Source of the DNA: Candidatus Methanoperedens sp.
GTDB lineage: Archaea > Halobacteriota > Methanosarcinia > Methanosarcinales > Methanoperedenaceae
Assembly: GCA_041494705.1 (NCBI GenBank)
Contig: JBGQBI010000004.1
Location: 210,001-242,000 of the forward strand
Direction: 5' to 3'
DNA: 32,000 nucleotides
Positions 3,154 through 27,437 of the stretch are shown here, piece by piece. Below the pieces are notes generated by a model. It made no database searches and was not told the origin of the DNA. It was given only the letters and a program-made list of their open reading frames with translations. The stretch's first letter is position 1; each line of letters opens with the position of its first letter. Made by a program: the position numbers and the translations under genes.

Positions 3154-3223
3154 GGAATAAATGCGGAGCAATTTGCCTGATTTATTCGGTTTCTGGAACT
3201 ATAATGGCAACTGTTGCTGATTT
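3154..3223 (+). repeat. 70-bp direct repeat, copy 2 (38 nt upstream of S-layer ATG)
   Basis: 66 of 70 nt are identical to 954-1023. Confidence 0.9.
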
Positions 3224-3260
3224 ATCTAATGTTATATAGGTTTGGAAAAATGTCTGGCGC

Positions 3261-5387
3261 ATGGAGTTAACAAAAATGATAAAAATATTTACAATATTTG
3301 CACTTATGTTCATACTGGCAATACCTGCGACAGCAGCCAATATAACAAAAGTCGAAATTCACGGCGTGGTTTTTGACGAAAAATCAAGTACCTACAATAC
3401 CACATTGCAATGGGATGCCCAGAACTTCACAGGATTCTATTATAACTTTAACGGGGGGAAGTCAAGTGAAACTCTCAACATTACTCAATCTGCTTCAAGC
3501 TTAACAGCCAGCAGCAGGACTATTCAGAAGGATAATCTGTTTTATAATACCTCGCGCACAAGCCAGAACTACACCCTGTTCACTGCAAAAGGGTGGAAAG
3601 TTGAGAACGGTCTTACAAGTACCTTTACAAAAAATACCACAGGAGGCTATTATGCACAGCTTGGATGGTTCGGTGATCGGTACGTGGCTGTAAACGGGAA
3701 AGCAAACAAATTAGCTAAACTGATTAAAGAGCAGAAGATAGAGGAAAAACAGATATTAAAGCTCGGCACAGCATGGGACCTCGGGGAAGGTTACAATATT
3801 ACGGTTGAATCTCTTGATACAACAACTTCCCCAAGGCAAGCATGGCTTTCCCTTAACAAGGATGGAAAAGTTCTTGATAATAGGGTCGTGAACGAGGGTG
3901 ATGTTTATACTTACGTTGAGAAAAGCGTGAGCGGCGAATCGGATGTCCCAATATTTGTTACTTATGTGGAAAGTATCTTTACTGGTGGAGAGGGCATGTC
4001 TGTGCTTGTTCAGCTCAGATATACCTGGCTCATCTCCCGGAATGTGCTTGAGGTCAAGGTAGCAGATAAGTTCGGCGTGTTTGAGGTAAAGGAGGCAAAT
4101 GAAAACTACCTGCTTCTTTACAATAAGGACAAGACCGTAAACCTTGACCAGAACACAGTGCAGCCACTTTACAGCGATCTGAAATTTAAAGTAGCGGATA
4201 AGGATACAGCTTTGCGGTTCTATCCGATTCTTGAAAAAACAGCGCCCGGAAAGTATGAGATACGGGGAGGCGCCTATGACCAGACCCAATACAAGAATCT
4301 TGTCTGGGATGCCCAGAGGTTCCCTGGCTTCTATTATAACTTTAACGGAGGAAAGTCAAGTGAAACCCTCAACATTACTCAATCTGCTTCAAGCTTAAAT
4401 GCCAGCAGCAGGACTATTCAGAAAGAGAATCTGTTTTATAATACCTCGCGAACAAGCCAGAACTACACGCTGTTCACTGCAAAAGGGTGGAAAGTTGAGA
4501 ACGGTCTTACAAGTACCTTTACAAAAAATACCACAGGAGGCTATTATGCACAACTTGGATGGTTCGGCGATCGGTACGTGGCTGTAAACGGGAAAGCAAA
4601 CAAATTAGCTAAACTGATTAAAGAGCAGAAAATAGAGGAAAAGCAGACTTTGAAGCTCGGCACAGCATGGGACCTCGGAGAGGGATACAATCTTACAGTC
4701 GAAGCACTCGATACAAAAGCATCTCCAAGGCAAGCATCGCTTTCACTATCCAGGGATGGCAAAATTCTTGATACCAAAGTAGTGAACGAGGGGGATGTCT
4801 ATACCTACACCGAGAAAAGCGTTAGTGGCGAGTCCGATGTGCCGATATTTGTAACCTACGTGGAAAGCATATTCACAGGCGACGAAGGCATGTCCGCCTT
4901 TGTCCAGCCCAGGTACACATGGCTTGTCTCGCAGAATGTGTTTGAAGTTAAAGCAGGAGATAAGTTCGGCGTATTTGAGGTAAAGGAAGCTAATGAAAAC
5001 TACCTGCTCCTCTATAACAAAGACAAGCAGATAGACCTCAATCAGAACACTGTCCTGCCGTTATACGGCGATCTGAAATTTAAAGTAGCGGATAAGGATA
5101 CAGCTTTGCGGTTCTATCCCTTTATAGAGCAAACAATCCCATCCAATAAGGAATTAAAAGCTGCAAGTGCAGTTCCAACCACTACAGTGCCCACAATAAC
5201 ACAGGCGTCATCTGCAATATCATCCTCGCTGCAAGCGGCAGCGCCAGAAGCTGCATTAGCCCCGGTGCAGACAGTCGTGTCGATAAAAACAGAAAATAAC
5301 ACATCTGCACCAGGGCAGTGGTACTGGGTTCTGTTTGCAATCGCGGGTCTTGTTACAACAGGATACCTGGTGTTGAGGAGAGATTAA
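3261..5387 (+). CDS. S-layer protein with tandem DUF1608-type domains, Thr/Ser/Ala-rich stalk and C-terminal TM anchor
   Basis: 708 aa. It has a signal peptide (IFALMFILAIPATAANIT), two 298-aa repeats, the stalk PTTTVPTITQASS, and a C-terminus PGQWYWVLFAIAGLVTTGYLVLRRD. This architecture matches Methanosarcina-type S-layer proteins. Confidence 0.9.
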   Translation: MELTKMIKIFTIFALMFILAIPATAANITKVEIHGVVFDEKSSTYNTTLQWDAQNFTGFYYNFNGGKSSETLNITQSASSLTASSRTIQKDNLFYNTSRTSQNYTLFTAKGWKVENGLTSTFTKNTTGGYYAQLGWFGDRYVAVNGKANKLAKLIKEQKIEEKQILKLGTAWDLGEGYNITVESLDTTTSPRQAWLSLNKDGKVLDNRVVNEGDVYTYVEKSVSGESDVPIFVTYVESIFTGGEGMSVLVQLRYTWLISRNVLEVKVADKFGVFEVKEANENYLLLYNKDKTVNLDQNTVQPLYSDLKFKVADKDTALRFYPILEKTAPGKYEIRGGAYDQTQYKNLVWDAQRFPGFYYNFNGGKSSETLNITQSASSLNASSRTIQKENLFYNTSRTSQNYTLFTAKGWKVENGLTSTFTKNTTGGYYAQLGWFGDRYVAVNGKANKLAKLIKEQKIEEKQTLKLGTAWDLGEGYNLTVEALDTKASPRQASLSLSRDGKILDTKVVNEGDVYTYTEKSVSGESDVPIFVTYVESIFTGDEGMSAFVQPRYTWLVSQNVFEVKAGDKFGVFEVKEANENYLLLYNKDKQIDLNQNTVLPLYGDLKFKVADKDTALRFYPFIEQTIPSNKELKAASAVPTTTVPTITQASSAISSSLQAAAPEAALAPVQTVVSIKTENNTSAPGQWYWVLFAIAGLVTTGYLVLRRD
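3351..5138 (+). repeat. Intragenic tandem duplication, 2 x 894 nt (298 codons)
   Basis: TGGGATGCCCAGA occurs at both 3411 and 4305. An identical peptide run of more than 70 aa (LFYNTSRTSQ...KIEEKQ) is present in both halves, with only about 6 nt differences, all synonymous. Confidence 0.95.
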
Positions 5388-5604: not shown

Positions 5605-5892
5605 TTATCCGGTCGGCACCCCCGGGGCATTATTCAGCCCGTACAGGCTCTGGCGCGCATCCTGGAAATAGAAGCGCTCCTGCAATATATTTTCTTCTTT
5701 CAGTCTGTTCAGGGCGTATCTGACTGTTCTTGCCGGAAGATAGGTTTCCCTCGCAATATCCTTTTGTGTCAAAAAGCCGCTGGATTCCAGCACTTTGAAA
5801 ACAAGCTTTGCCGAGGGAGGTAAATGATCTATCTTCGCGTTCGCTAACTCAAATAGCTGTCCATTGTTTGCAAAGACGATTCCTTCTTGAAT
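5605..5892 (-). CDS. Small winged-helix transcriptional regulator; +1 frame of module C; start unresolved
   Basis: The segment LPPSAKLVFKVLESSGFLTQKDIARETYLPARTVRYALNRLKEENIL is a typical archaeal wHTH. The first canonical start (GTG 5793) would delete helix 1. The frame is open up to 5892, where a TGA overlaps the module ATG. Confidence 0.7.
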   Translation of the reverse strand: MQEGIVFANNGQLFELANAKIDHLPPSAKLVFKVLESSGFLTQKDIARETYLPARTVRYALNRLKEENILQERFYFQDARQSLYGLNNAPGVPTG

Positions 5893-5911
5893 TCATTTTA
5901 AAATTCTCCAG
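5849..5911 (-). promoter_or_regulatory. Translation-start module copy C (SD GGAG, ATG 5896, AGAAGG-N6-CTTTGC, 0-frame TGA 5851-5849)
   Basis: The 0-frame reads atg aat tca aga agg aat cgt ctt tgc aaa caa tgg aca gct att tga (MNSRRNRLCKQWTAI). Confidence 0.7.
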
Positions 5912-10812: not shown

Positions 10813-10860
10813 AGGTGAATTAAAATGAATACAAGAAGGAATCATCTTTGCCGTCACTGA
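10813..10860 (+). promoter_or_regulatory. Translation-start module copy B (SD AGGTGAA, ATG 10825, AGAAGG-N6-CTTTGC, 0-frame TGA 10858)
   Basis: The 0-frame reads atg aat aca aga agg aat cat ctt tgc cgt cac tga (MNTRRNHLCRH). Confidence 0.7.
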
Positions 10861-12062: not shown

Positions 12063-12986
12063 ATGAATGTTAGAAGACTTAAGGATGCTTTTGCAAGCAG
12101 GCTCATGCTGGCTGCCGCTATTTTCTCAAGTTTTCTTGTACTTATTATCGCTTTTGTGCTTTATTGGAGATCAAAGCCGATTTTTGAGGTTAAATCAGTT
12201 GGCGCCCTTCTCTTCGGCAGCACCTGGATGCCTTTTCAGGGAGAGTTCGGTTTTTATCCATTCATCCTGGGTACTCTCTACGTGACGCTGCTGGCTATGG
12301 CAATTTCCGTACCCCTCTCAATACTGAGTGCAATCTATCTTGCTGAGTATGCGCATGAAAACGTGAGGGCAAAGGTTCTCCCGATGATAGATTTGCTTGC
12401 GGGCATACCGCCTGTTGTCTACGGTGTTTGGGGTGTTCTTGCAGTTGTACCGTTGATTGCATATATCGCACCTGTACTGGGAAAGTCCGGGATACCATTT
12501 CTAAATATGAGCGGCTACTCTACCGGTTACAGTTTACTTGCCGGGGGCATCGTTCTTGCAATTATGGTTTTTCCTATTATTATTTCAATCTCGGAGCAGG
12601 TATTGCGGGCTGTACCCTCAGACGTGAGGGAGGCATCCCTGTCGCTTGGCGCAACGAGATGGCAGACTGTAAAGCATGCAGTGATACGCATTGCCTATCC
12701 CGGGATGGCCGCCGCCGTCATTCTTGGATTTTCCCGGGCTATCGGCGAGACCATGGCTGTTTTAATGGTCGTGGGGAATGTCCCGAAGATTCCCACTTCG
12801 GTATTTGATTCCGCATATCCACTGACCGCGCTCATTGCCAATAACTACGGTGAGATGATGTCGATACCGCTGTATGATTCTGCCCTGCTGCTTGCCGCCC
12901 TTATACTGATGCTTGTAATCCTGTTCTTCACTCTGGCTGCCCGGTTGATATTGATAAATATCGAGAGGAGGATGGCGAATGGATAA
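12063..12986 (+). CDS. pstC: Phosphate ABC transporter permease PstC
   Basis: 307 aa and polytopic. It has an EAA-type loop SLSLGATRWQTVKHAVIRIAYPG. Confidence 0.9.
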   Translation: MNVRRLKDAFASRLMLAAAIFSSFLVLIIAFVLYWRSKPIFEVKSVGALLFGSTWMPFQGEFGFYPFILGTLYVTLLAMAISVPLSILSAIYLAEYAHENVRAKVLPMIDLLAGIPPVVYGVWGVLAVVPLIAYIAPVLGKSGIPFLNMSGYSTGYSLLAGGIVLAIMVFPIIISISEQVLRAVPSDVREASLSLGATRWQTVKHAVIRIAYPGMAAAVILGFSRAIGETMAVLMVVGNVPKIPTSVFDSAYPLTALIANNYGEMMSIPLYDSALLLAALILMLVILFFTLAARLILINIERRMANG

Positions 12987-13827
12987 ACTGCGTGAAGAAA
13001 AATTGTTTAAAATTCTGATGCTCGCATCGCTTGCTGTCGTTATCGGGAGCCTCTTCATGGTTGTCGGGGTGATTATATGGAACGGCGTACCTGCGCTCTC
13101 GCTTTCTATGATAACCCAGACACCCAAAGGAGGGTATTATCTTGGAAAGGAGGGCGGTATCCTGAATGCCATAGTGGGTTCCTTATACCTGGCGTTTGGA
13201 AGCGTAATTCTCGCCCTCATTATCAGCCTGCCGGCGGCCTTATCGCTGCAGAAAGACTATATCGGGAGAACAAGGCTTGCATATTATATCAGGCTCTCCC
13301 TCGATGTTCTCTGGGGCACTCCCTCAATCGTGTACGGCGCATTTGGTTTTATCGTAATGTTATATTTAGGTATGCGGGCATCGCTTCTGGGTGGAATAAT
13401 AGTTCTTACTGTTTTGCAGCTGCCGATAATGATAAGATCAATGGAAGAAGTAATAAAAATGGTTCCAAATGAGTTAAAAGAGGCTTCTTATACCCTGGGG
13501 GCGACACGCTTTGAGACAACTTTCGGTGTTGTGGTGAGGCAGGCGCTGCCTGGTATAGTGACCGCGGTGATCCTTTCTTTCGGGCGTGGAATCGGAGATG
13601 CTGCATCCATTCTCTTTACCGCGGGCTATACGGACAGCCTGCCGCGCTCACTCCTTGATCCAGTGGCATCACTCCCCCTTGCAGTATTTTTCCAGCTTGG
13701 CACACCATTCCCGGAGGTGCAGGCGCGGGCGTATGCAAGTGCGCTGATACTTCTTTTTATTGTACTTGCACTCAGTTTAACATCACGATATTTATCCAGG
13801 AAATTCATGAAAAACATTATCAGGTAA
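12979..13827 (+). CDS. pstA: Phosphate ABC transporter permease PstA
   Basis: 282 aa. It contains EASYTLGATRFETTFGVVVRQALPG and overlaps pstC by 8 nt. Confidence 0.9.
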   Translation: MDKLREEKLFKILMLASLAVVIGSLFMVVGVIIWNGVPALSLSMITQTPKGGYYLGKEGGILNAIVGSLYLAFGSVILALIISLPAALSLQKDYIGRTRLAYYIRLSLDVLWGTPSIVYGAFGFIVMLYLGMRASLLGGIIVLTVLQLPIMIRSMEEVIKMVPNELKEASYTLGATRFETTFGVVVRQALPGIVTAVILSFGRGIGDAASILFTAGYTDSLPRSLLDPVASLPLAVFFQLGTPFPEVQARAYASALILLFIVLALSLTSRYLSRKFMKNIIR

Positions 13828-13831
13828 TCCA

Positions 13832-14152
13832 ATGAAAAACTTAAGTTTAATCAAAAGAAGGGGTATGCGAAGCATACCCCCAGACCGGATAAAGCGAGGT
13901 GTCGCTAAACTTTTAGAAAAGTTTATTAAAGACAACACGTATGGCTTTGCCATACGTAAACCTTTAAGAAAGGTTTATCAAAAAACTTTAGGAAAGTTTT
14001 ATCAAACGAGGGGTATGCTGCGCATACCCCAACACTGCGCAAGCCGAAGTATCGGCTTTCAAACGACAGGTATGCAACGCATACCTGAACACCACGTAAA
14101 CCGGGGTATCGGTTTACGTGGACACCGAATAAAGCGAGGTGTCGCTTTTTGA
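13832..14152 (+). other. Array of 11 perfect hairpins filling the pstA-pstB gap; also an uninterrupted 106-codon, highly basic ORF
   Basis: Hairpin coordinates are 13860-13880, 13890-13906, 13907-13924, 13937-13957, 13958-13976, 13982-14000, 14010-14030, 14041-14058, 14067-14087, 14093-14120 and 14129-14147. The ATG at 13832 lies 4 nt after the pstA stop. The stop overlaps the pstB TTG start. Confidence 0.8.
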
Positions 14153-15141
14153 AAAGCCATATCAGCATCCAGAATGTCAATGCATTCTACAGCGACCATC
14201 AGGCACTTCGGGGCATAACTGTTGAAATACCGCAAAAGCAGATAACAGCTATCATCGGCCCGAGCGGATGCGGGAAGAGTACCTTGCTCAAGTGTTTCAA
14301 CAGGCTTATCGACCTCACAGACGGAGCAAGAGTATCAGGGAAAATAATAGTGGATGGCATGGATGTGCTCAGCGCCAGCTCTGAAATAACCGAAATAAGG
14401 CGAAGGATGGGTTTGCTTCCGCAAAAGCCAAACCCGCTCCCAATGTCGATATACGATAATGTTGCATACGGGCCCAAGCTGCATGGAAAACCGGACAAGA
14501 AAGAACTGGACGAAATTGTTGAAAAATACCTGAAAATAGCTGGTTTGTGGGATGAAGTGAAAGACCGCCTGAAGTCTCCGGCATCGAAACTCTCCATAGG
14601 GCAGCAGCAGAGGCTCTGCCTTGCAAGAGGACTGGCTGTCGAGCCCGAAATTATCCTGTGCGATGAGCCGACATCAGCATTAGACCCGGTCTCATCGCAG
14701 CATATCGAGGAGCAGCTCCTGAAACTCAAGAAGGATTACACCATCGTGATAGTTACTCACAACATCCACCAGGCAATGAGGCTTGCTGACTACGTTATCC
14801 ATCTATACCTCGGTGAAATCGTGGAACATGGGCCCGCAAATGAAGTGTTTGAAAACCCGAAAGAAGAGAGGACGCGGGCGTATATTAACGGGACTTTCCT
14901 TGTTGATGTGAAAGTGGATAAAGAGATAAATCTGAAAGGAAATGTGTGCCCGTATAATTTTGTGTATGCCAAACAGGCGCTGTCTGCGCTTCCTAAAGGA
15001 AAAATCCTTAAGATAATCGTGGACGATCCCACGGCAGTAACCGAAGTTCCGAGGGGCATGGAAGCCGACGGTCATGAGGTATTAAGCGTGAATCAGCAAA
15101 ATAAAACGGATTGGGAGATAATCATAAGGAAGCAAAGCTAA
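14149..15141 (+). CDS. pstB: Phosphate ABC transporter ATPase PstB fused to a C-terminal TusA-like domain
   Basis: It has Walker A GPSGCGKST, signature LSIGQQQRL and Walker B IILCDEPTSALD. The PstB core ends at RTRAYINGTF (about aa 250). Residues 256-328 read INLKGNVCPYNFVYAKQAL...ILKIIVDDP...GHEVLSV...WEIIIRK, which is the TusA pattern. Confidence 0.85.
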   Translation: MKSHISIQNVNAFYSDHQALRGITVEIPQKQITAIIGPSGCGKSTLLKCFNRLIDLTDGARVSGKIIVDGMDVLSASSEITEIRRRMGLLPQKPNPLPMSIYDNVAYGPKLHGKPDKKELDEIVEKYLKIAGLWDEVKDRLKSPASKLSIGQQQRLCLARGLAVEPEIILCDEPTSALDPVSSQHIEEQLLKLKKDYTIVIVTHNIHQAMRLADYVIHLYLGEIVEHGPANEVFENPKEERTRAYINGTFLVDVKVDKEINLKGNVCPYNFVYAKQALSALPKGKILKIIVDDPTAVTEVPRGMEADGHEVLSVNQQNKTDWEIIIRKQS

Positions 15142-18857: not shown

Positions 18858-18915
18858 GATTGATTTTTATTATAATTTCTTTACGCACTTCTCGTCTGGC
18901 ATGAAAAAGTGTAAA

Positions 18916-18984
18916 AACCACAGAGAACGCAGAGGACACAGAGAAAAATAACAAATCTCTGTGCTCTCTGTGTCCTCCGTGGTT
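18916..18984 (+). repeat. CCACAGAG hairpin repeat, copy 1
   Basis: The arms AACCACAGAGAACGCAGAGGACACAGAGA and TCTCTGTGCTCTCTGTGTCCTCCGTGGTT form a roughly 29-bp imperfect stem. The copy lies between convergent genes. Confidence 0.85.
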
Positions 18985-19105
18985 AATTATCTGACCGGGA
19001 TTGATAATCCAAATCAACTTATCTATTTCAATAGCGGGATAAGAAAATGCGTTTATACTTTCCTATAGGTTAAAAAAAAGAAATTAGTAATATGCATTTA
19101 GCATA

Positions 19106-22687: not shown

Positions 22688-23245
22688 ATGAGATTCAAAA
22701 TCCTCCCAGACCCGATAAAATACGACGGCTCCCAGATAGCTCCGCTCTGGGCGTACAGCATGGGAATAAAAGGCGATTCCATCGTCTGCTTCCATGGTCC
22801 CATGGACGTTACATTTGAGAATATGAAAGACCTCGAGGATGAAAAAGCCGGGAAAACCATAAAGGGCGATGATTTGCTCCATATTATTGTGGAAAGGTTC
22901 GATTCCCCTGCGAGTATGCGTCTTTCCTACCACATGCAGCGCCTCCTCATTATCTGCATAAAGGAAGTACTTGAGAAGCACGGGGTGAAAACTACCAGGA
23001 ACGGCGACGACCTTTTTATCGATGACAGGAAGCTCACTGTGAGCATTGCCAGCGCAGGAGTCGCGAGCGAGAAGATTCACTGCGGGATAAATATCACTAC
23101 AAAAGGGACGCCCCGCGATGTCAAGACTGCTGCCCTTCTTGATTTCGGATTGGACTGGAAACCTATCGCAGAGGAGATTTCCCGAACCTTTTTGCATGAA
23201 ATTGAGGATATCGAAGGCGACATTACTAAAACAAAAAGTCTATGA
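22688..23245 (+). CDS. Conserved archaeal protein (DUF366-like), function unknown
   Basis: 185 aa with globular, coding-like composition. The family assignment is from memory only. Confidence 0.6.
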   Translation: MRFKILPDPIKYDGSQIAPLWAYSMGIKGDSIVCFHGPMDVTFENMKDLEDEKAGKTIKGDDLLHIIVERFDSPASMRLSYHMQRLLIICIKEVLEKHGVKTTRNGDDLFIDDRKLTVSIASAGVASEKIHCGINITTKGTPRDVKTAALLDFGLDWKPIAEEISRTFLHEIEDIEGDITKTKSL

Positions 23246-24693: not shown

Positions 24694-24726
24694 TGATGAA
24701 TCGCTGCGCTTTCGCGGGTCTTGAAA

Positions 24727-24798
24727 AACCACAGAGAACGCAGAGGACACGGAGAAAAAAAATAACAAATCTCTGTGATCTCTGTGTCCTCCGTGGTT
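24727..24798 (+). repeat. CCACAGAG hairpin repeat, copy 2
   Basis: It is nearly identical to copy 1 in the same orientation. It lies between convergent genes. Confidence 0.85.
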
Positions 24799-24835
24799 AA
24801 TTAGTGGTCTGTAAATTTACATGCACTGAAAAACC

Positions 24836-27222: not shown

Positions 27223-27268
27223 GATTTTTTAATTTCTTTTGGGTAAACGAATTCAGGCAAGGATAATC

Positions 27269-27338
27269 AACCACAGAGCACACGGAGAGCACAGAGAGTT
27301 GCCGCTTTTCTGGAGTGTCCTCTGTGCTCTCTGTGGTT
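27269..27338 (-). repeat. CCACAGAG hairpin repeat, copy 3 (inverted orientation)
   Basis: Its reverse complement aligns with copies 1 and 2 (aaaaaccacagagaGcAcagaggacac...tctctgtgctctc). It lies 46 nt after the cofC stop. Confidence 0.8.
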
Positions 27339-27437
27339 TTTCAAACCAGAAAATAATAAAAAGTCTCGGGAATTCCAAGGATAAAGATAAATGGCACAAA
27401 GTATAATATCTCCTATTATAAGGAAGAATAACAATTT

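Follow-up and report, generated by a model that had tools for sequence, protein, structure and literature searches.

PATEs are small IS200/IS605-derived elements of haloarchaea. In Rickettsia, the small palindromic repeats known as RPEs persist in frame within genes, to which they add a peptide segment (PMC10969869). The tandem repeats of Borgs, where they lie within open reading frames (ORFs), have unit lengths divisible by three and leave the frames unbroken, and tandem repeats are reported to be virtually absent from the genomes of the Methanoperedens hosts (PMC9879509). In Haloferax volcanii and Escherichia coli, gene pairs that overlap in the sequence ATGA are coupled by termination-reinitiation (PMC6728339). 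Here we describe an array of perfect hairpins between pstA and pstB in the pst operon of a Candidatus Methanoperedens species, located at positions 13832–14152 of a 32,000-nucleotide (nt) stretch of contig JBGQBI010000004.1; this whole stretch is referred to as the window. We propose, with a probability of roughly 0.6, that the array is a composite copy of a palindromic repeat family resembling REPs, MITEs and RPEs, that it is translated throughout, and that the ribosomes are passed on to pstB by termination-reinitiation.

Results

The operon has the order pstS-pstC-pstA-array-pstB. The array is flanked by pstA (12979–13827, + strand; 282 amino acids, BPD_transp_1) and by pstB (14149–15141, + strand; 330 amino acids, ABC_tran and a C-terminal TusA domain), which starts with TTG. 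Direct reading, a repeat finder and a separate hairpin scan revealed 12 perfect hairpins between 13832 and 14152. Eleven of them had been listed in an earlier note on this DNA and are all present, with three details in need of correction: the last hairpin lies at 14131–14148 and not at 14129, the one at 13937 has a stem of 9 bp and a loop of 3 nt, and the one at 14093 has a 12-bp stem that starts at 14092. The twelfth palindrome, AAACTTAAGTTT, is located at 13837–13848. These 321 nt contain nine of the 28 perfect hairpins (stem of at least 7, loop of 0–7) found in the entire 32-kb window, whereas shuffled versions of the region yielded a mean of 0.12 and a maximum of three by the same criteria. 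The folding z-score of the array is −12.4 on either strand.

The array is composed of four units made from three hairpin modules, whose consensus sequences are GGGGTATGC-NNN-GCATACCCC (module i), AAAACTTT-NNN-AAAGTTTT (module ii) and AAAGCGA-GGTG-TCGCTTT with the variant AAACCGA-AGTT-TCGGTTT (module iii). All units of the window score on the + strand (101 bits versus at most 26 bits on the − strand with a covariance model). Unit 1 (13836–13906; 54 bits in cmsearch) comprises a collapsed hairpin ii, which is the twelfth palindrome mentioned above, followed by hairpin i (GGGGTATGC-GAA-GCATACCCC, 13860–13880) and hairpin iii (AGCGA-GGTG-TCGCT, 13892–13905). Unit 2 (13906–13977; 27 bits) is made up of a first hairpin ii (TAAACTTTT-AG-AAAAGTTTA, 13906–13925), a hairpin i' (ACGTATGGC-TTT-GCCATACGT, 13937–13957) and a second hairpin ii (AAACCTTT-AAG-AAAGGTTT, 13958–13976). 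It is followed by a complete ii-i-iii unit of 81 nt or 27 codons (13983–14063; 101 bits; hairpins at 13982–14000, 14010–14030 and 14041–14058). This unit is missing from an otherwise near-identical array at another locus (L173) with which it was aligned, and is a nested or duplicated in-frame unit with TCAAA repeats at its bounds. Unit 4 (14059–14121; 50 bits) combines hairpin i (CAGGTATGC-AAC-GCATACCTG, 14067–14087) with a long hairpin iii (CCACGTAAACCG-GGGTAT-CGGTTTACGTGG, 14092–14121). The terminal hairpin iii (14131–14148, also read directly) has the consensus sequence AAAGCGA-GGTG-TCGCTTT and presents, in and next to its loop, a Shine-Dalgarno-like GAGGTG at 14136–14141, which is separated from the pstB start by the 7-nt spacer TCGCTTT.

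An assembly artefact can be discounted, as the array is identical in the 2.07-Mb JGI contig Ga0534157_0000001 and because the parts of it present in two independent Logan assemblies (L002 and L003; PstA identical to that of the window) match. The latter two contigs stop inside the array, 91 and 130 nt in. Repeats of this kind appear to break short-read assemblies, and arrays may therefore be under-represented in metagenome-assembled genomes (MAGs).

An ORF of 106 codons (ORF106; 13832–14152, + strand, ATG to TGA) traverses the whole array, as the earlier note had stated. Its ATG lies 4 nt past the TAA of pstA (13825–13827), behind the sequence AGGTAAT (13822–13828), and its TGA (14150–14152) overlaps the TTG of pstB (14149–14151) in the form of TTGA (14149–14152). 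The three + strand frames across the array contain zero, nine and four stop triplets, and those of the − strand six, five and four. Composition shuffles put the probability of an open frame at 4.5 × 10⁻⁴; with randomised phase between the twelve hairpin modules, it is about 0.03. The offsets of 150 and 57 nt reported for the GGTATGC hairpins are correct, as are the peptides RGMRSIP, RGMLRIP and TGMQRIP that they encode. A mirror ORF noted on the opposite strand (13926–14180, − strand, 84 amino acids) is likewise present and is taken as a by-product of palindromy; it does not stay open over the full length of the array. Neither ORF has a match in Pfam. No gene is called at ORF106 in public data, and exact-protein look-ups returned no record for ORF106 or for P0029, an array ORF called elsewhere.

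The pst junction of relatives points to the origin of this arrangement. PstA is 86–92% identical to its homologues in Candidatus Methanoperedens MAGs, and in four Methanoperedens relatives (L004, L005, L010 and L011) the pstA stop is followed after 4–5 nt by the pstB start, with AGGTGAT as Shine-Dalgarno sequence. Such direct junctions had been named in advance as the sign of an insertion. The 3' end of pstA with the adjoining AGGTAAT (13822–13828) is a degenerate remnant of this AGGTGAT. As pstB of a further contig (L006) begins with ATGGAAAACTTAAGTTTAAAAAATCATATCAG, the ATG and the first codons of ORF106 represent the ancestral pstB start region. A shorter version is found at the pst junction of L009, where a single 80-nt unit with one GGGGTATGCGAAGCATACCCC hairpin, homologous to unit 1 of the window, contains an ORF of 26 codons that ends in a TGA overlapping the pstB ATG as ATGA. 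Comparison of these junctions shows the array to be an insertion at the 5' end of pstB. The TusA (sulfurtransferase-like) domain of the window's PstB covers residues 258–328, and PstB of L009 is of similar length (322 amino acids).

Two further observations concern the borders of the array. The 3' end of pstA, TTCATGAAAAACATTATCAGG, resembles the 5' end of the element, CCAATGAAAAACTTAAG (13792–13840), which Tandem Repeats Finder scores as a 25-nt tandem repeat. The pstA part of this likeness is native because array-free relatives also end in FMKNIIR; the likeness may be either coincidence or microhomology at the insertion site. At the other border, a run of five T residues (14146–14150) marks the transition from array to pstB, where most other copies have TTTATG. 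Since oligo-T is a transcription termination signal in archaea, this copy might attenuate transcription into pstB.

A scan of metagenomes with the pattern CAAANNANNGGTATGCNNNGCATAC, taken from this array, yielded 85 stretches with 90 pattern matches, most of which are clearly the same element. Clustering of all collected loci resulted in 63 arrays of the family at more than 40 distinct loci, with units of 77–81 nt. One of the relatives with a direct pst junction (L010) carries an ii-i-iii unit at an unrelated intergenic site, 6 kb from that junction. The suggestion that the modules might belong to a dispersed repeat family is borne out by these metagenome contigs. In the window itself the covariance model detects four units, all in the array, and neither the pattern nor the model found modules elsewhere in the 32 kb, so that dispersal is shown through other contigs; nor did the model detect units in the pst neighbourhoods of six other Methanoperedens MAGs, about 78 kb in total. 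A scan of viral contigs produced two matches, both of which were discarded as chance hits to the GGTATGC palindrome. At the protein level, a search with ORF106 retrieved 40 ORFs of 60–184 amino acids that are called 'hypothetical' and extend across such arrays, several of them labelled Ca. Methanoperedens. An exhaustive search of 1.84 billion protein representatives returned only 21 relatives, and the family is therefore narrow. We found no published description of it in the literature, and this family of small palindromic repeats in methane-oxidising Methanoperedens is apparently undescribed.

Copies abut the starts of about 25 distinct genes, in sense orientation without exception. Among these genes are fpoC, fpoI, ribosomal-protein-like genes and genes for a GTPase, an epimerase, a DapA-like protein, argininosuccinate lyase and BcrAD. 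The commonest form, ATGAAAAACTTTAGGAAAGTTTTATCAAAAGAAGGGTATGCTTCGCATACCCTATACCTCATAAAGCGAGGTGTCGCTTTATGA (designated type 1), is a 27-codon ORF whose ATG occupies the former start site of the host gene, often as ATGA on the stop of the upstream gene, and whose TGA overlaps the ATG of the downstream gene. In a sample of 29 gene-abutting starts, 27 have a nearby stop of the upstream frame, which overlaps the start as ATGA in 25 cases. The sequence AGCGAGGTGTCGCTTT, or the terminal hairpin AAAGCGA-GGTG-TCGCTTT, stands directly before the start codon in 24 of the 29 copies and therefore places GAGGTG 7 nt upstream of it; this motif is complementary to CACCUC at the 3' end of archaeal 16S rRNA. In the single form the stem is extended to CATAAAGCGA/TCGCTTTATG, and the downstream ATG is therefore base-paired.

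At three loci gene calls place the array ORF between its neighbours with 4-nt overlaps on either side: 90 codons between fpoB and fpoC (L171), 81 codons between HGD-D and BcrAD (L173) and 116 codons between Fer4 and GGR (L175). The fpoB/fpoC junction is occupied by a single unit in four contigs in addition to L171, and this persistence at the same junction across species (five contigs) recurs at the MIEEILQQ gene (four contigs). In L171 a second unit exactly fills the gap preceding the next called gene (Fer4). At the pst locus, too, the frame runs from the ancestral pstB start to a stop-start overlap. This is the architecture of translational coupling, and it recurs at some 25 other genes. A more elaborate case was observed on the − strand of L116, where a long upstream ORF runs through a 213-nt hairpin array (approximately 843–1055) and stops at TAAATGA; the ATG of this sequence starts a type-1 unit (approximately 1126–1206) that ends in ATGA on the next gene, resulting in a chain of three overlapping frames.

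Copies are also present in frame within four protein families. They were found in two orthologues of a DUF123/GIY-YIG protein (L172) and in HemD (HEM4; L119), where the Pfam match spans the insert, in a Y-family polymerase (IMS; L118/L139), which contains an antisense unit and whose IMS match falls into two stretches, and in an N6_N4 methylase (L125), where the unit is read in the other sense frame and the host protein matches N6_N4_Mtase. A unit is open in two of three sense frames and in one of three antisense frames, and survival inside genes therefore needs only the right phase. The idea that the unit is stop-free by design was rejected, as three open frames out of six is near chance for 25 codons. 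The remaining copies are intergenic and frequently sit within loops belonging to other inverted-repeat families of the CACAGAGA, CGCAGATGAAC and CACGGAT types, which also occur in the window.

Covariation was assessed in 48 aligned units by counting pairs over the three stems. Pairing is maintained in 98.8% of the stem cells, with compensatory changes in 71 cells distributed over six pairs; at the base of hairpin i, for example, both sides change together (GG/CC, CA/TG, CG/CG, AA/TT). The covariation score of 0.181 compares with 0.067 in shuffles, none of 500 reaching the observed value. G-U pairs account for only 8 of 1123 cells. The loop columns show no conservation and coincide with the variable amino-acid positions. 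Because the stems covary while the loops vary freely, the constraint acts on the nucleic acid and not on the peptide. An Rfam scan of the whole window returned no match at the gathering threshold.

Several features of the copies bear on the maintenance of the frame. Among the 15 longer gene-abutting ORFs examined (34–122 codons), of which 14 are arrays and one is a type-1 copy containing a nested insert, none has a stop in the coupling frame; the other two frames have 3–9 and 0–5 stops. A random-phase null applied to the nine arrays of at least 80 codons gave P values of 0.025–0.065 each. Length differences between related copies amount to +3 nt (L130 versus L108), −3 nt (L121) and +75 nt (L129 versus L116). 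Relative to L173, the window array shows differences of +81 and −6 nt and corresponds to that array with a nested unit of 81 nt added. L156 retains the ORF and the ATGA overlap although its hairpins have decayed. Hairpin i is read as EGYASHT in type 1 and as RGMxSIP in arrays; indels of −4 and +1 re-phase the two subfamilies before hairpin iii, and both end in IKRGVA(L/F)-stop. Since it is kept in every gene-abutting array examined, the open frame is probably no accident.

As to the ends of the element, its 5' terminus is AAAACTTT and its 3' terminus GTCGCTTT; in inverted orientation they share only AAA(A/G)C. Direct repeats of 6–8 nt flank several intergenic copies, whose hosts are themselves repetitive, and intergenic copies have no fixed tetranucleotide on the left. 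Genic copies share only ATGA at both ends, and the nested insertion distinguishing L129 from L116 shows no such repeat. An 8-nt target-site duplication as a general rule (for example ATGAACGC in L106) was considered and rejected in view of the repetitive hosts and of the genic copies, which have only ATGA in common.

The window contains other repeats. The sequence ATCAAAAGAAGG, said to be shared by the 5' end of the ORF and a 'module A' at position 1083, is present there; nothing else ties that position to the array, and ATCAAAAGAAGG was set aside as part of a different repeated motif found upstream of pstS and other genes. The earlier note also reported a match of AGAAGGGGT to a 'module D'. 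The module A motif of about 32 nt, TTAAAATGAAT(A/T)CAAGAAGGAATC(A/G)TCTTTGC, occurs at 10820–10851 (+ strand), 5870–5901 (− strand), 1085–1105 and 22769–22788. It precedes pstS by about 110 nt, is also present upstream of an HTH_24 regulator gene with its relative orientation unchanged, and could represent a short leader (MNTRRNHLCRH / MNSRRNRLCKQ...) or a shared operator. A second dispersed family consists of inverted repeats, CCACAGAGAACGCAGAGGACACAGAGA...TCTCTGTGCTCTCTGTGTCCTCCGTGG, downstream of genes (18904–18991, 24721–24803 and 27262–27344); at one metagenome locus (L117) a hairpin unit of the array family is nested inside an element of this type. A 300-nt direct repeat of 95% identity with a spacing of 894 nt (3411–3710 and 4305–4604) is located within or near the S-layer protein gene region, and an 83-nt direct repeat of 88% identity is found 2.2 kb apart at 954–1036 and 3154–3236.

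Discussion

Taking into account the position of the frame and the architecture shared by gene-abutting copies, we propose that ORF106 is a translated coupling mini-cistron that does not specify a functional protein. Ribosomes, whether loading de novo or passed on from pstA, would initiate at the former pstB ribosome-binding site and translate 106 codons, thereby unwinding the hairpins on their way. They would terminate at UGA (14150–14152) and re-initiate at the UUG at 14149, aided by GAGGUG, such that PstB could still be made despite 320 nt of strong secondary structure. The peptide would be a by-product of translation through the element, and the element itself selfish or neutral DNA, persisting at gene starts and within genes only if it remains translationally transparent.

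A number of points weigh against this proposal. Translation of ORF106 and re-initiation at the TTG are only inferred, from sequence. The copies were collected with a pattern taken from this very array, which biases the proportions of their contexts, and a few gene-start copies break the rule: in L089 the stop lies 9 nt upstream, in L151 it lies 14 nt upstream and is combined with ATGG, and L164 has a 1-nt deletion at the contig end. No transposase partner and no autonomous relative encoding TnpA/TnpB with matching ends was found in the collected loci, where the search for an autonomous partner, that is, a long element bounded by ii and iii hairpins, turned up only artefacts between separate copies. 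Moreover, with two of three sense frames open and unit lengths of 57, 24 or 81 nt, in-phase duplication of units would leave an array open without selection. The last 216 nt of the window array are about 96% identical to the fpoB/fpoC array of L171; arrays at different loci thus share ancestry, and the 15 ORFs are not independent tests. Finally, the element brings its own Shine-Dalgarno sequence, and pstB could therefore initiate de novo with no need for translation upstream.

A rival explanation holds that the array is a passive repeat forming a structured but untranslated spacer, that de novo initiation of pstB occurs at GAGGTG-N7-TTG, and that the frame was inherited from units with lengths that happen to be multiples of three. 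It would be in line with the presence, in 24 of the 29 gene-abutting copies, of a Shine-Dalgarno-like motif at a distance of 7 nt from the start, with the openness and lengths of the units and with the lack of a gene call for ORF106 in the public record. We nevertheless consider it unlikely: it does not explain why the ATG is always on the host's original start and the stop nearly always overlaps the next start, nor does it account for the multiple-of-three indels, the survival of the ORF in L156 after hairpin decay and the re-phasing before the terminal hairpin. Pairing of the downstream ATG in CATAAAGCGA/TCGCTTTATG of the single form also disfavours de novo initiation. The two readings put forward in the earlier note, an intra-operon element in the manner of REP clusters and a basic repeat protein, are each borne out in part. 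With respect to the former, a dispersed and inserted palindromic family was indeed found, but it is not a classical REP cluster, as the GTAG/CGTC head is absent, all units point in the same direction and copies occur inside reading frames. As a co-opted regulatory RNA, the array might set the stoichiometry of pstSCA versus pstB or the stability of the mRNA, like intercistronic REPs and BIMEs, for example by blocking 3'-5' decay, by attenuation at the T5 run, or by placing the pstB start under structure-dependent control. Such a role would be in line with the very strong predicted structure (z = −12.4), the location between cistrons of an operon, the T5 tract at 14146–14150 and the persistence at the same junction across species (fpoB/fpoC and the MIEEILQQ gene). 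It appears quite improbable, however, given that the direct junction works in close relatives, that units are found at some 25 functionally unrelated genes, in coding sequences and nested in other repeats, and that Rfam provides no match; the rarity of G-U pairs (8 of 1123) and the equal palindromy of both strands argue for DNA-level palindromy rather than an RNA-specific fold.

For the other reading, in which ORF106 is a functional, very basic repeat protein with paralogues elsewhere, the retention of an open frame in every gene-abutting array examined speaks in its favour, together with the ATG behind a ribosome-binding site and the recurrence of KPLRKVYQ, TRGMxSIPxH and IKRGVAL among the 40 related called ORFs. 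The peptide is not conserved, however. The frame in which shared DNA is translated differs between subfamilies, variable residues correspond to hairpin loops and the conserved ones to stems, and copies exist in non-coding DNA and, in one case, antisense inside a Y-family polymerase gene. In addition, Pfam contains no match, only 21 cluster representatives were recovered among 1.84 billion proteins, and four close relatives lack the ORF. We therefore regard a functional protein as highly implausible.

Our proposal of a translated, coupling array leaves room for a more specific speculation on how the family spreads, for which we would put the odds a little short of even. It holds that the family is a mobile element that has become adapted to life at start codons and at the junctions of operons, carries its own coupling cassette and specifically colonises ATGA junctions, possibly by action of a Y1-type single-strand transposase cutting 3' of ATGA. 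The cassette would consist of a start in the host initiation site, a frame open through three hairpins, a Shine-Dalgarno sequence in the last loop and a terminal ATGA. The latter would both end the frame of the element and rebuild the host start. The genic copies would fit a scheme in which an element with ATGA at its own end inserts 3' of ATGA, after the fashion of IS200/IS605 elements and PATEs.

If our proposal is correct, selfish palindromic DNA occupies the most sensitive sites of a genome, among them start codons and the junctions of essential operons, such as those of the Fpo complex, ribosomal proteins and the Pst transporter, without killing the host, and it is tolerated by preserving ribosome flow rather than by avoiding genes. 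If the family is mobile in the way outlined above, it could be described as a transposon designed, as it were, to be 'translation-transparent', and engineered bicistronic leaders would have a natural counterpart in it. As a natural example from a climate-relevant, methane-oxidising archaeon, the locus lends itself to tests of termination-reinitiation, and the element is a compact and portable coupling cassette that could be tried in archaeal genetic tools. For annotation it serves as a warning that dozens of 'hypothetical proteins' of Methanoperedens are probably translated repeats.

Comparison with known systems places the family between several classes. Like MITEs, it is small, multi-copy, dispersed at unrelated loci and non-autonomous in appearance, but its termini are not inverted repeats of each other; to our knowledge, no MITE has been described that has a start, an open frame and a Shine-Dalgarno sequence as well as a stop-start overlap. 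The terminal hairpins (ii at the 5' end, iii at the 3' end) are reminiscent of PATEs and the IS200/IS605 family, and the genic copies would fit insertion 3' of a fixed tetranucleotide without target duplication. With REPs and BIMEs it shares dispersed short palindromes that cluster between operon genes and have strong hairpin potential. It differs from them in that the GTAG/CGTC head is missing from all three module consensus sequences, in that units have the same instead of alternating direction and lie in a through-frame or inside genes rather than in extragenic DNA, and in that no RAYT-type transposase was identified in the 32 kb of the source genome covered. The similarity to Borg repeats consists in the host lineage and in frame-preserving repeat lengths, whereas Borg repeats are perfect, direct, A-rich tandem repeats of local origin and the family described here is palindromic, dispersed and chromosomal.

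The in-frame copies in DUF123, Y-family polymerase, HemD and N6_N4 methylase proteins resemble RPEs. The present family is archaeal, however, and is not known to be related in sequence to RPEs; its units of 77–81 nt contain three short perfect hairpins, most copies are mini-cistrons at gene starts or junctions that have stop-start overlaps and build arrays, and it is read in different frames, whereas RPEs are said to encode a conserved peptide. The overlaps (TTGA at pstB and ATGA in most other copies) and the Shine-Dalgarno sequence inside the upstream frame are those of coupled ATGA gene pairs, with the difference that here a repeat element, itself devoid of protein function, plays the part of the upstream cistron and has come to lie between two genes that used to be direct neighbours. 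Synthetic bicistronic leader designs are comparable in that a translated leader keeps a structured initiation region open, as we propose for pstB. By analogy, the element may be viewed as RPE-like inside genes, as REP-cluster-like where it forms an intercistronic array, and as bicistronic-leader-like at gene starts.

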